Of a stretch of DNA of 64,000 nt, positions 33,574-36,760 are shown piece by piece. Position numbers and translations under genes: made by a program. Source of the DNA: Escherichia coli (lineage in GTDB: Bacteria > Pseudomonadota > Gammaproteobacteria > Enterobacterales > Enterobacteriaceae). The stretch's first letter is position 1. Every line of letters begins with the position of its first letter. The DNA lies in assembly GCF_013315695.1 (NCBI RefSeq), contig NZ_CP054353.1; one strand, 5' to 3'. The notes under the pieces were generated by a model. That model worked only from the letters and a program-made list of their open reading frames with translations. It had not been told where the DNA came from and made no database searches.

Positions 33574-33610
33574 TTAATGCGCCTGCGGGCGCATTAATCA
33601 CTTCTTTTAC
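33574..33610 (+). terminator. Rho-independent terminator after hemW
   Basis: TTAATGCGCC-TGCG-GGCGCATTAA hairpin followed by a T-rich tract. Confidence 0.7.
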
Positions 33611-33882
33611 CCCCCGTTAATTAACTTCGGCAAAAATATATTTCTTACTGAATAAATATCGACGATATTTATTATATATATTTAGTGAATATTTACTCAT
33701 CATTTATTGATTATAAACATGTACAACCTGGCGCACAAAATTAATATTTAATTTCTGACTTTATTTCAAGTTGTGATAAACATAGACAAGTTGTCAGACA
33801 GGTTAACCAATTTGTCGCACAAAGCACTGATAAGCACAATTAGATATCAACCAATTTCCATTCTTCAACAGGGAGTTTTTTT

Positions 33883-34869
33883 ATGAAAATGAGGTCATTT
33901 ACCCGCTCATTAGTCTGCGCATCCTTGCTGGCTCTGGTTAGCACTGGCGTAAACGCCGCAGAAAAAGTGACGTTAAAGTTAGCACACAACCTGGAAAGAA
34001 GTCATGTTGTACATCAGAGTTTTGAAGAGCTGGCGAAAGAAGTAAAACAGCTGTCAAAAGGTAATATGGTGATCCGTATTTACCCCAGCAGCCAGATGGG
34101 TAATGCGCGAGAAACTATGGAGTTGTTGCAAAATGGTGCACTGGATATGACCAAAGGTTCCGCCAGTGATCTGGAGTCTTTTGATAATATTTATGCTATC
34201 TATAATTTGCCGTTCTTATTTAAAGATCAGGCGCACTTCAACAAAGTGGTTTTTGGTGAAGTTGGTAAAGAAATTATGGATTCAACAAAAGATAAAGGCT
34301 TTTTTGCTTTATCAGCTTATGTAGCGGGTACACGCAGTTTCTATGCGAAAAAACCGATTACTAAGCCAGAAGATCTTAAAGGGCTGAAAATTCGTGTTCA
34401 GCCAAGCCCGACCACCATCAAAATGATTGAACTGATGGGTGGCTCACCCACTCCAATTTCATTTGGCGAAGTTTATACTGCGATGCAGCAAGGTGTAGTA
34501 GATGGCGCAGAAAATAACGTGCCTTCCTGGGTGCAGACTCGACATATCGAAATTGCCAAAGTCTTTTCTGAAGATGAACATGCCTCAATTCCTGACTTTT
34601 TGGTTATCTCCACCAAAACATGGAATAAATTAACCCCAGAACAGCAACAAATCCTCGAAACAGCGGCGAAGAAATCCGAAGCTTATCAACAAAAATTGTG
34701 GGAAAAAATTGACGCTGACACACGTGCTCAGGCGAAAGCTATGGGTGGTGAAATCGTTAAGGTTGATAAAGCCCCATTCCGTGCCGCAGTTCAACCTCTG
34801 TTTGACGACTTCAAAAAAGATCCAAAACAAGCTGCTTTGTTAGAGAAATTCGACAACGCTGCTCAATAA
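33883..34869 (+). CDS. TRAP transporter substrate-binding protein (DctP family)
   Basis: 328 aa with signal peptide; DctP-type periplasmic binding protein by sequence character; preceded by a 280 bp AT-rich region. Confidence 0.75.
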   Translation: MKMRSFTRSLVCASLLALVSTGVNAAEKVTLKLAHNLERSHVVHQSFEELAKEVKQLSKGNMVIRIYPSSQMGNARETMELLQNGALDMTKGSASDLESFDNIYAIYNLPFLFKDQAHFNKVVFGEVGKEIMDSTKDKGFFALSAYVAGTRSFYAKKPITKPEDLKGLKIRVQPSPTTIKMIELMGGSPTPISFGEVYTAMQQGVVDGAENNVPSWVQTRHIEIAKVFSEDEHASIPDFLVISTKTWNKLTPEQQQILETAAKKSEAYQQKLWEKIDADTRAQAKAMGGEIVKVDKAPFRAAVQPLFDDFKKDPKQAALLEKFDNAAQ

Positions 34870-34904
34870 TATTTCGGGCCAGTCTCTGGCCCTGATTTTC
34901 CAGG

Positions 34905-35417
34905 ATGCTTACAATGATATTTAACCGCCTGAAACTTGCGGTAGACCGCGTCATTGCCGCGTTTTCTGTCGCCGTAATGCTTGCTCTGGTTGTATGCGTA
35001 GTCTGGCAAGTATTTAGCCGCTACATACTTAACCAGCCAAGTACATTAACCGATGAGCTGGCACGCTTTTTGATGATCTGGGTAGGATTATTAGGTGCTG
35101 CATATACCGTCGGCGCGCAGAGACATCTCTCTATCGATTTATTTGCTCTCGCCCTGAATAAGCGCAAGCAATTACTTCTTAGTATAGTCATTAACATTCT
35201 CATTTTAGGTTTTGCCGGTTCGGTCATTGTGACTGGTGGCCTGAAATTAATTGATAAAACGCTGGCAACATCACAAGTATCTGCCGCGATGCAAATACCG
35301 ATGGGATACGTATATATCATTCTGCCATTAAGTGGAGTGGTGATGATGTTTTATGCCTTGTGTTTTATTAATCAAAGCATTCAACAACTGAAACAACCTG
35401 CGCAGGAGGCCAGTTAA
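34905..35417 (+). CDS. TRAP transporter small permease (DctQ family)
   Basis: 170 aa, four predicted TM helices, between the DctP- and DctM-like genes. Confidence 0.7.
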   Translation: MLTMIFNRLKLAVDRVIAAFSVAVMLALVVCVVWQVFSRYILNQPSTLTDELARFLMIWVGLLGAAYTVGAQRHLSIDLFALALNKRKQLLLSIVINILILGFAGSVIVTGGLKLIDKTLATSQVSAAMQIPMGYVYIILPLSGVVMMFYALCFINQSIQQLKQPAQEAS

Positions 35418-36718
35418 TGGATAGTTATATCGCGCTTACACTATTTGGCTGTTTTTTTGTGCTGGTCTTTATTGGTGTGCCCATTTCGTTCTCAATCGGT
35501 ATTGCCACTGTAGCTTCAATGCTGTTGATGTTTCCCTGGGATATCGCGGCAATCACTGTTTCGCAACGACTGGCTAATGGACTGGATAACTTTGCCCTGT
35601 TGGCAATCCCCTTTTTCATCTTTGCCGGAACGCTGATGAACAGCGGCGGTATTGCGATACGTTTGATTAACCTCGCCCAGGTAATGGTTGGCCGCGTTCC
35701 TGGTTCGCTTGGTCATGTGAACGTCCTGGCGAATATGATGTTTGGTTCCATTTCTGGTTCAGCCGTTGCGGCAGCTGCTGCCGTTGGTGGCACACTGAAT
35801 CCCATTCAGACCAAAGAAGGTTATGATCCGGCATTTTCTACCGCTGTAAACGTCTCATCTTGTATTACTGGATTACTGATACCGCCCTCAAACGTGTTAA
35901 TTGTGTTTTCCCTGACAGCTGGCGGCGTTTCTGTAGCATCGCTATTTATGGCGGGATATTTGCCAGGGATCTTAATGGGTCTTGCGGTAATGATAGTCTG
36001 CGGCATTATTGCTAAACGCCGTGGCTACCCACTTTCAGAAAGAGCAACCTTTGCTCAGGCCTGTAAAGCGTTTCTGGATGCCTTACCAAGTTTGCTTCTG
36101 GTGTTCATTGTAATGGGCGGCATTCTGGGCGGCATTTTTACCGCAACTGAAGCGTCAGCAATTGCCGTTGTCTACACATTTATTCTCTCGGTGCTGATTT
36201 ACCGGGAAGTAAAATGGCGCGATTTACCCAAACTGATTCTGGAATCGGTTGTTACCACTTCGATTGTATTACTGTTGATCGGTTTTTCCGTGGGCATGTC
36301 CTGGGCAATGACCAATGCTGATATTCCTTATATGATCAGCGACGCGTTGATGGGGATTTCTGATAACCCACTGATCATATTGCTGCTGATTAATATCGTC
36401 TTATTAATTGTCGGCATCTTTATGGACATGACACCGGCTGTACTAATCTTCACACCAATCTTCTTGCCGATTGTACAAGAGCTGGGAATGGATCCGGTAC
36501 ATTTCGGTATTATGATGGTGGCTAACCTTTGTATTGGGCTGTTAACACCGCCGGTGGGTAGTGCGCTATTTGTTGGTTGTTCTATTTCAGGTGTGAAGAT
36601 TCAACATTTGATCAAACCATTGCTGCCATTTTATGCCGTATTGTTAATCGCGTTGATGATGATCACTTACATCCCGCAAATATCCTTGTTCATTCCACAG
36701 CTACTAGGGCTAATGTAA
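35417..36718 (+). CDS. TRAP transporter large permease (DctM family)
   Basis: 433 aa polytopic membrane protein; start overlaps the dctQ-like stop. Confidence 0.8.
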   Translation: MDSYIALTLFGCFFVLVFIGVPISFSIGIATVASMLLMFPWDIAAITVSQRLANGLDNFALLAIPFFIFAGTLMNSGGIAIRLINLAQVMVGRVPGSLGHVNVLANMMFGSISGSAVAAAAAVGGTLNPIQTKEGYDPAFSTAVNVSSCITGLLIPPSNVLIVFSLTAGGVSVASLFMAGYLPGILMGLAVMIVCGIIAKRRGYPLSERATFAQACKAFLDALPSLLLVFIVMGGILGGIFTATEASAIAVVYTFILSVLIYREVKWRDLPKLILESVVTTSIVLLLIGFSVGMSWAMTNADIPYMISDALMGISDNPLIILLLINIVLLIVGIFMDMTPAVLIFTPIFLPIVQELGMDPVHFGIMMVANLCIGLLTPPVGSALFVGCSISGVKIQHLIKPLLPFYAVLLIALMMITYIPQISLFIPQLLGLM

Positions 36719-36725
36719 AAAATAA

Positions 36726-36760
36726 TTTGCCGGATAACTTTTTATATTATCCGGCAAAGG
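36726..36760. terminator. Bidirectional terminator between the TRAP operon and yggM
   Basis: TTTGCCGGATAA...TTATCCGGCAAA inverted repeat with T-rich loop. Confidence 0.6.

Follow-up and report, generated by a model that had tools for sequence, protein, structure and literature searches.

Three co-directional genes for a TRAP transporter stand between hemW and yggM in this Escherichia coli genome, which raises the questions of what the transporter carries, how it is controlled and how it came to lie at this locus. We analyzed the 64-kb stretch of DNA that contains the operon (the window). The reading we favor as probable is that the three genes form a DctP-type TRAP importer of D-galacturonate and/or D-glucuronate, that the operon is controlled by ExuR and that it is an ancestral element at the hemW locus. 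Which ligand is bound, whether ExuR binds the promoter and how high the affinity is are predictions from the sequence.

Operon organization

In the list of open reading frames of the window, dctP, dctQ and dctM are intact and together span positions 33883–36718 on the plus strand (Table 1). DctP scores 285.7 bits against TIGR00787 (cut-off 175), DctM scores 471 bits against TIGR00786 (cut-off 268) with 405 of 405 model positions covered, and DctQ matches the Pfam family DctQ (PF04290) with E = 2e-30. Because the DctP, DctQ and DctM models were all matched above their cut-offs, the operon belongs to the DctP-type TRAP transporters (TC 2.A.56). All three components are encoded together, and the system is complete, as the first-pass annotation had stated. 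The stop codon of dctQ and the start codon of dctM overlap by one base (TAATG). For dctQ, the start in the RefSeq annotation is tabulated; an alternative ATG lies upstream at 34905 and would give a protein of 170 aa. No regulator or catabolic gene adjoins the operon in the window, again in agreement with the earlier annotation. Rfam gave no match in positions 33300–37000, and literature searches returned nothing on the hemW-yggM TRAP locus of E. coli.

The region upstream of dctP had been described as AT-rich, 280 bp long and accompanied by terminators on both flanks of the operon. It is AT-rich, but its length is 312 bp. On the hemW side the terminator stands, and this predicted structure sets the operon apart from hemW transcription. 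The hairpin at the other end, between the convergent dctM and yggM, is chiefly a candidate terminator of yggM and for dctM is weak at best. A further hairpin between dctP and dctQ is possibly a partial terminator or a stabilizer, and would yield an excess of the binding protein. The GGAG core of the ribosome-binding site is invariant across the alignment. A sigma-70 consensus scan upstream of dctP found no promoter, and no convincing −10/−35 elements were seen there by eye. The operon is under purifying selection. Between two E. coli clades, dctP differs at 22 nucleotides and at no amino acid, and positions 33741–33861 differ at no base.

Table 1. Features of the TRAP operon and its flanks, in window coordinates
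Feature	Coordinates	Strand	Description
hemW-dctP regulatory spacer	33571..33882	+	312 bp, AT-rich, 31% GC
hemW intrinsic terminator (predicted)	33573..33598	+	hairpin with T-tail; 11-bp stem then CACTTCTTTT; −17.5 kcal/mol, z = −5.2
Conserved block GCGCACAAAA	33731..33740	+	retained in nearly all of 13 aligned genera
Conserved TGTGA	33772..33776	+	CRP half-site-like; alignment footprinting; right CRP half not conserved
Box A AAGTTGTCAGACAGGTT	33788..33804	+	17-bp palindrome, FadR/GntR-type putative operator
Escherichia-specific 18-mer AGACAGGTTAACCAATTT	33796..33813	+	present in Escherichia loci only
Box C AATTTGTCGCACAAAGC	33809..33825	+	second TGTnnnACA box, exactly 21 bp past box A
Conserved block AGATATCAACCAATTT	33842..33857	+	26 bp upstream of ATG
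Ribosome-binding site	33870..33875	+	AGGGAG
dctP	33883..34869	+	periplasmic solute-binding protein, 328 aa
GC-rich hairpin GGGCCAGtctCTGGCCC then TGATTTTCC	34876..34892	+	between dctP and dctQ
dctQ	34914..35417	+	small membrane subunit, 167 aa (RefSeq annotation)
dctM	35417..36718	+	large membrane subunit, 433 aa
dctM-yggM hairpin	36726..36758	−	between convergent genes; T-run on minus strand (yggM side)

Relatives and ligand site of the binding protein

The N-terminus of DctP (MKMRSFTRSLVCASLLALVSTGVNA, followed by AEK) resembles a Sec signal by inspection, and as read from the sequence the signal peptide ends at VNA, directly before AEK. The nine best sequence matches of DctP and most of its best fold matches are TRAP binding proteins of the EFI set (4OVR, 4N15/4N17/4LN5, 4MHF/4MIJ, 4X8R, 4N91, 4N8Y and 4XFE), with E = 4e-68 to 2e-58 by sequence and target-normalized TM-scores of 0.87–0.91. 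Of these, 4N91 is a D-glucuronate binder and 4MHF a glucuronate/galacturonate binder, and 4N15 has been assigned among the glucuronate/galacturonate binders (Herman et al., 2020; PMC7660916). Identity between DctP and the solved hexuronate binders is 38–39%, and its score is 233 bits with hexuronate binders versus about 141 with SiaP and about 117 with true DctP. We take the ligands of the other EFI entries to be hexuronates as well. Sequence comparison thus places the window DctP within the hexuronate-binding clade of TRAP binding proteins.

The ligand site of DctP comprises Asn36, Leu37, Ala75, Arg151, Arg171, Asn211 and Asp238. The full contact set of the Salmonella glucuronate binder STM3169 (Asn35, Gln36, Glu74, Arg150, Arg170, Asn210 and Asp237) is therefore not present; five of the seven residues are kept (Asn36, Arg151, Arg171, Asn211 and Asp238), and across the subfamily Gln36 is changed to Leu37 and Glu74 to Ala75, the latter replaced by Pro in Aeromonas and Pantoea. 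Both changed positions depart from every characterized relative in the alignment, with the Glu kept in 4OVR and 4N15. Characterized hexuronate binders have Gln or His and Glu where the hemW-linked subfamily has Leu and Ala or Pro. A conserved arginine of TRAP binding proteins pairs with the carboxylate of the ligand; Arg171, which aligns with Arg170 of STM3169, is invariant in 24 homologues. The AlphaFold model of DctP has a moderate pLDDT of 78, with low confidence at residues 208–220, beside Asn211. Because Leu37 and Ala75 differ from the residues of characterized binders, the exact ligand is uncertain. The first-pass annotation had held that tight clustering with a characterized family would make the annotation trivial. 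The protein does fall in the hexuronate clade, but the annotation is not trivial, because identity to characterized binders is 38–49% and two pocket residues are changed.

Gene context and promoter boxes

The 60% homologues of the operon in Aeromonas rivuli, A. molluscorum and Pantoea sp. IMH have a divergent uxaC-uxaB-uxaA cluster on one side and exuR on the other (uxaA-uxaB-uxaC <> PQM-exuR), and kdgK is likewise found in A. rivuli. The neighboring exuR matches the ExuR equivalog at 442–500 bits (cut-off 396). The slot between uxaC and exuR that the TRAP genes occupy in these species is the slot of exuT in K-12, and these homologues have the same pocket signature of Leu37 and a residue other than Glu at position 75.

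Upstream of dctP are palindromic boxes of the kind found in the exuT, uxaC, uxaB and uxuA promoters, where we identified the K-12 reference boxes ourselves, by searching for motifs in the promoters of genes known to be under ExuR, rather than taking them from published footprints. Box A, whose position is conserved among homologues, is identical at 14 of 17 positions to the box in the K-12 exuT promoter and, also at 14 of 17, to that upstream of K-12 uxaB. It is the only site in the 64 kb with three or fewer mismatches to either palindrome, where 0.11–0.16 would be expected by chance. In other genera box C reads AAtATGTCATACAGAAA. Read on the opposite strand, the core of this version is that of the exuT box, TGTATGACA, and the same is true of the homologue consensus core TGTCATACA. 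A TGTnnnACA box lies 59–94 bp upstream of the ATG in all 42 homologue promoters, about half of which have two boxes 21 bp apart; the density of this motif is 6.1 per kb in the homologue promoters versus 0.25 per kb in the background. The conserved block AGATATCAACCAATTT holds an ACCAATT half-site, as in the uxaC and uxaB boxes.

Other operators were also considered. A full CRP site (TGTGAtggctcTCACC) lies upstream of exuT in K-12; upstream of dctP a TGTGA half alone is conserved, which makes it at most a candidate CRP site. The Escherichia-specific 18-mer AGACAGGTTAACCAATTT resembles a UxuR-type even palindrome, and its final 13 nucleotides match the box of the K-12 uxuA promoter, GATGTGGTTAACCAATTT, exactly. 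As a conserved operator the strict UxuR-type pattern (GGTnnACC plus flanks) was rejected: it was found in Escherichia only, with one unrelated match in C. braakii. TGTnnnACA is a generic motif of the FadR subfamily, and another GntR-type regulator is conceivable.

From the promoter sequence we infer that the operon is a member of the ExuR regulon, with ExuR as the predicted binding protein of the boxes. The uxa/exuR context of the 60% homologues, together with the conserved exuT/uxaB-type boxes, argues for hexuronate uptake under ExuR. The earlier statement that substrate and control were unclear was thus too strong.

Proposed mechanism

In the mechanism we propose, periplasmic DctP would capture the sugar acid through its carboxylate, using Arg171, Arg151, Asn211, Asp238 and Asn36, and hand it to the DctQM membrane unit for uptake driven by an ion gradient. 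The substrate would then enter the pathway of UxaC, UxaB-UxaA or UxuB-UxuA, and KdgK, encoded elsewhere on the chromosome. The TRAP system would operate together with ExuT, the MFS carrier, and would probably be the high-affinity route. ExuR, the hexuronate repressor, would control the operon in trans by way of the two palindromic TGTnnnACA boxes, which are spaced 21 bp apart; in Escherichia UxuR may take part as well.

More speculatively, and with a modest chance of being right, the hemW-linked subfamily may form a distinct class of TRAP binders whose Leu and Ala/Pro pocket confers a specificity new to TRAP systems, in Escherichia with a rewired promoter that gained a UxuR-type box between two ancestral ExuR-type boxes. 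Such a class might, for example, accept D-galacturonate alone through a new mechanism, or take up an unsaturated or keto-deoxy uronate that derives from pectin or alginate.

Alternative substrates and origin of the operon

Could the transporter serve the ExuR network with a different acid sugar, such as D-tagaturonate, D-fructuronate, a 4,5-unsaturated or keto-deoxy uronate (DKI/DEH) or a hexonate? The idea arises because the pocket appears more hydrophobic and roomier than those of known hexuronate binders: the whole subfamily has Leu37 in place of Gln, and Ala or Pro at position 75 in place of Glu, while the aligned characterized relatives keep the Glu. Identity to characterized binders of just 38–49% and, in Mangrovibacter, a divergent neighbor weakly matching an oligoalginate lyase point the same way. 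Nevertheless, all homologues with linked catabolic genes lie in a complete galacturonate pathway cluster at the exuT position, and only there, and the five remaining ligand residues are retained; we consider this alternative rather unlikely. It is improbable that the operon is the E. coli orthologue of the D-glucuronate-specific STM3169-3171 of Salmonella, which would allow annotation by transfer, even though the binding proteins share a clade and the STM3169 operon likewise stands alone without linked enzymes (PMC7660916). Another E. coli protein, from the ygiQ-ftsP region, matches all seven STM3169 residues by name and number, and the window DctP is only 49% identical to this E. coli counterpart of STM3169 and lacks Gln36 and Glu74. 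The residue signature points to the ygiQ-ftsP protein and, with the different locus and the 49% identity, refutes the orthology; by its sequence, the window DctP is a paralogue of STM3169-type proteins. The TRAP genes treated in the literature on APEC BEN2908 belong to the ygiQ-ftsP system and not to the window locus. We give very little credence indeed to a transporter for C4-dicarboxylates (DctPQM-like), sialic acid (SiaPQM-like) or 2,3-diketo-L-gulonate (YiaMNO-like). Database matches are named generically ‘TRAP dicarboxylate transporter’ and the YiaM and YiaN models match weakly, but YiaN reaches 300.8 bits where its cut-off is 800 and YiaM 37.2 where it is 260, the SiaP and true DctP scores given above fall well below that of the hexuronate binders, and no dctBD, nan or yia genes lie near the operon in the window.

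The operon had also been described as inserted between hemW and yggM. In K-12 (DH10B) these two genes are indeed neighbors, separated by 154 bp of REP sequence, and the operon is absent, as the first-pass annotation had indicated. The survey across E. coli that it proposed finds the operon in 1461 of 5426 complete genomes, including ST131 and O111:H8 strains. The hemW-PQM arrangement is common to at least seven other enterobacterial genera; it was seen in Citrobacter, Kluyvera, Klebsiella, Pluralibacter, Phytobacter and some Salmonella, and several Klebsiella species carry the operon, K. pneumoniae included. A recent horizontal insertion (a genomic islet) in the lineage of this strain, outside host regulation, would account for the absence from K-12 and 73% of genomes, for a GC content of 44% versus 53% in hemW and ansB, and for the 9-bp direct repeat TTAATCACT at both ends. 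We judge it highly improbable. Many genera have the operon at this locus, between-genus nucleotide identity is 77–82% for the TRAP genes versus 77–83% for the flanking core genes, the operon is found in distant E. coli lineages (ST131 and O111:H8) at 97.7–99% identity, and the operator boxes are conserved. No integrase, transposase or other mobility gene and no tRNA is present, and the 9-bp repeat, the sole flanking repeat, is within chance expectation. Across the seven genomes compared, the operon is always lower in GC than the neighboring rdgB-hemW region, by 3–8 points. The features of a genomic island (mobility genes, tRNA or att-type repeats, divergence discordant with the flanks) were thus not found. 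We also asked whether the TRAP-bearing haplotype acquired its diverged 3′ end of hemW from another genus, but this end was no closer to any of the genera sampled. Because synteny extends across genera, divergence is in step with the flanks and mobility genes and meaningful repeats are absent, we interpret the K-12 state as a loss. Our best reading is that the operon is ancestral at the hemW locus in Enterobacteriaceae and that K-12, like about 73% of sequenced E. coli, has lost it, with REP sequence taking its place. This corrects the polarity of the event, from gain in the window strain to loss in K-12.

Host glucuronides, mucus and dietary pectin supply hexuronates, which serve Enterobacteriaceae as carbon sources in the gut. 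If our favored reading is true, roughly one in four E. coli, among them an ST131 strain, possess a second hexuronate importer, one that depends on a binding protein. K-12 lacks it, and it would be a fitness factor that varies among strains and is invisible to laboratory-strain studies. The ligand and regulator predictions are now directly testable.

Comparison with known systems

As a transporter type the system is already known, and the hemW-linked operon is an additional example, a useful annotation and not a surprising one. A close parallel is STM3169-STM3171 of Salmonella Typhimurium, whose binding protein has a Kd of about 0.2 µM for D-glucuronate and which is reportedly needed for survival in macrophages (Herman et al., 2020; PMC7660916). 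Both are DctP-type three-gene operons without linked catabolic genes, with binding proteins of the same sugar-acid clade and conserved Arg/Arg/Asn/Asp/Asn ligand residues, and the window operon is likewise proposed as a high-affinity route beside ExuT. They differ in locus (hemW-yggM versus ygiQ-ftsP), in the Leu and Ala that the window DctP has for Gln36 and Glu74, and in the linkage of window-type homologues to galacturonate (uxa) rather than uxu genes; the comparison was made through the ygiQ-ftsP protein, which carries the STM3169 residue signature, and not through the STM3169 sequence itself. With the EFI hexuronate binders the window DctP shares the carboxylate-binding arginines, but it has Ala75 where 4OVR and 4N15 keep the Glu.

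To our knowledge, E. coli K-12 has a single TRAP system, YiaMNO, for 2,3-diketo-L-gulonate. YiaMNO has the same transporter class and three-gene architecture, but all three window proteins fall far below its equivalog cut-offs. ExuT is an MFS hexuronate:H+ symporter of E. coli. Its substrates are those predicted here, and its promoter has the same kind of palindromic box; it belongs to an unrelated protein family and works without a binding protein, so its affinity is probably lower. Another TRAP system, GaaPQM of Agrobacterium tumefaciens, is reportedly tied genetically to galacturonate uptake.

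Gene organization of the TRAP operon

By ORF inspection, the window contains three intact, co-directional genes, which the first-pass annotation had correctly described as a DctP/DctQ/DctM system. In a profile search, the DctP and DctM family models were both matched well over their curated cut-offs, and the dctQ product matched Pfam DctQ with E = 2e-30. The dctQ stop and the dctM start overlap by 1 base. The hairpin in the dctP-dctQ gap could either attenuate read-through or make the dctP message more stable, leaving the binding protein in excess over the membrane subunits. AF3, an E. 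coli isolate from a human blood culture, is 100% identical to the window across the locus.

Features of the TRAP operon and its promoter region in window coordinates
Feature	Position	Strand	Description
hemW terminator	33573-33598		clear; precedes spacer
Spacer 5' of dctP			312 bp, 31% GC; follows hemW terminator
Box A	33788-33804		AAGTTGTCAGACAGGTT
Box C	33809-33825		AATTTGTCGCACAAAGC
dctP	33883-34869	+	ORF
dctP-dctQ hairpin	34876-34892		GC-rich, T-rich tail
dctQ	34914-35417	+	annotation in identical RefSeq record
dctM	35417-36718	+	ORF
Hairpin 3' of dctM	36726-36758		T-run on yggM strand

Ancestry of the locus

The operon is present in 1461 of 5426 complete E. coli genomes, essentially always on the chromosome. 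Its absence from K-12, noted in the first-pass annotation, was borne out: in DH10B, an O55:H7 strain and many others, hemW adjoins yggM, and the gap is occupied by one to several REP elements. The same annotation called the operon "inserted", a reading that the comparison with other genera does not support. When one genome per species was scanned, the order rdgB-hemW-dctP-dctQ-dctM was also found in Citrobacter, Pseudocitrobacter, Kluyvera, Pluralibacter, Phytobacter and six Klebsiella species, K. pneumoniae included; some Salmonella enterica have it as well. Nucleotide identity between the window and these genera is 77-82% for dctP and dctM, equal to that of the surrounding core genes rdgB, hemW, ansB and yggN (77-83%). 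In all seven genomes compared, the operon is 3-8 points poorer in GC than the neighbouring rdgB-hemW region; its GC content tracks the host, at 44% in E. coli and 51-53% in Klebsiella, Kluyvera and Salmonella. No mobility genes are present at the locus, and a search for repeats flanking the operon returned nothing beyond one 9-bp match. The evidence favours loss in K-12: the operon appears to be an ancestral feature of the locus and to have disappeared from many E. coli lineages.

There are two clades of carriers: one, ~99% identical to the window, contains an O25b:H4-ST131 strain, and the other, ~97.7% identical, contains an O111:H8 strain. Comparing one member of each, we found 22 nucleotide and no amino-acid differences in dctP, 9 and 4 in dctQ, and 32 and 7 in dctM; the promoter-proximal segment 33741-33861 is unchanged. 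Purifying selection thus acts on both the genes and the control region. At least one carrier genome (NZ_CP074874.1) has an IS1 element within dctQ, and in 28 other genomes the operon is matched only in part, so it is decaying in some lineages. Some contigs filed as Collinsella, Bacillota and Alicyclobacillaceae (MAGs or genomes) also match the E. coli operon at 99-100% identity; these assemblies are almost certainly contaminated with E. coli.

Over the last 190 nt of hemW (33380-33570), the TRAP-bearing and K-12 haplotypes are 16% divergent, compared with 3% over the remainder of the gene, and therefore the haplotype boundary falls inside hemW. Neither version is nearer to any other genus sampled. 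The 3' end is also the least conserved part of hemW between genera, and in a TRAP-less strain (ST3) it is intermediate (91-92% to both haplotypes). On the other side, the region 3' of dctM is itself variable. yggM (36774-37781; DUF1202) has a low GC of 44%, resembling the operon; the yggM beside the operon is only 33-37% identical in Kluyvera and Klebsiella and is absent at the Citrobacter loci.

Genomic context and promoter boxes point to hexuronates as the probable substrates

We consider the operon a probable binding-protein-dependent importer of D-galacturonate and/or D-glucuronate, likely of high affinity, that would be regulated in trans as a member of the ExuR regulon and complement the MFS symporter ExuT. 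The first-pass annotation regarded substrate and control as unclear. This was overstated, as homologues in the exuT position and exuT/uxaB-like boxes make both much less obscure; the exact ligand is still the main uncertainty, because of the Leu37/Ala75 pocket of DctP.

In Aeromonas rivuli, A. molluscorum and Pantoea sp. IMH, a 60%-identical operon lies between divergent uxaC-uxaB-uxaA and exuR, whose product scores 442-500 bits against the ExuR equivalog (cut-off 396). A ygjV-like gene is also present at these loci, as is kdgK in A. rivuli. The K-12 order is ygjV-uxaA-uxaC divergent from exuT-exuR; the TRAP operon therefore occupies the exact position of exuT, in a cluster that encodes the complete galacturonate-to-KDG pathway. 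Leu37 of the window DctP is also found in these homologues, which have Pro, not Glu, at position 75, and thus the pocket signature travels with uxa/exuR linkage.

In an alignment of 13 genera, the strongest conserved promoter blocks are a pair of TGTnnnACA palindromes with a 21-bp spacing (boxes A and C). At least one such box lies 59-94 bp upstream of the ATG in 42 of 42 homologue promoters, whatever the genomic site of the operon, at a density of 6.1 per kb against a background of 0.25 per kb. The core of the TRAP-promoter consensus AAGATGTCATACAGAAA is the reverse complement of that of AAGTTGTATGACAAGTT, the exuT-promoter palindrome picked out by an unbiased palindromic motif search of K-12 hexuronate promoters; K-12 uxaB is preceded by a near-identical box, AAGTTGTCTGACATCTT. 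When either K-12 box was searched against the 64-kb window with up to 3 mismatches, the TRAP promoter site was the only match (0.11-0.16 expected by chance). The boxes are of the general FadR/GntR type, and we infer their assignment to ExuR from their likeness to the exuT and uxaB boxes and from exuR linkage in relatives. A near-perfect match to the TRAP-promoter consensus box, CAGATGTCATACAGG, also occurs within the K-12 uxaC coding region, ~150 nt from its start (locus 4580-4600); it might act as an internal operator or have arisen by chance.

Overlapping both conserved boxes is an Escherichia-specific 18-mer, AGACAGGTTAACCAATTT (33796-33813), which ends in 13 nt that match the K-12 uxuA promoter box exactly. 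Unrelated sequence at this position in other genera suggests a lineage-specific change in regulation, possibly an added UxuR input.

Comparison with characterised binding proteins

The nine best solved relatives by sequence are structural-genomics TRAP proteins (4OVR, 4N15/4N17/4LN5, 4MHF/4MIJ, 4X8R, 4N91, 4N8Y and 4XFE). A fold search with the AlphaFold model (pLDDT 78) returned mostly the same set at the top, with target-normalised TM-scores of 0.87-0.91. At the sequence level, 4OVR and 4N15 are only 38-39% identical to the window DctP. Within this set, 4N91 is D-glucuronate-specific, 4MHF (Bpro_3107) binds glucuronate and galacturonate, and 4N15 served as the template for STM3169, a Salmonella Typhimurium protein that binds D-glucuronate with a Kd of ~0.2 uM (Herman et al. 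2020, PMC7660916).

Outside the window, AF3 has another TRAP cluster, flanked by ygiQ and ftsP (NZ_OZ547117.1 2743674-2755752), which corresponds to region 'GR 21' (PMC12928451). Its binding protein has Asn35, Gln36, Glu74, Arg150, Arg170, Asn210 and Asp237, numbered exactly as in STM3169. The window DctP is only 49% identical to this protein, and we rejected it as the STM3169 orthologue. The AF3 cluster, which is of the STM3169 type, also encodes a FadR-type regulator and three dehydrogenases. It is broken: the parC-plsC-ftsP segment, flanked by two IS1 copies, appears to be inverted, the gene for the binding protein ends prematurely at 270 codons, and the large permease is reduced to a fragment.

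Like STM3169, the window DctP retains both arginines, Asn211, Asp238 and Asn36. It differs in having Leu37 and Ala75 where the STM3169 type has Gln and Glu, a replacement that holds in every orthologue examined.
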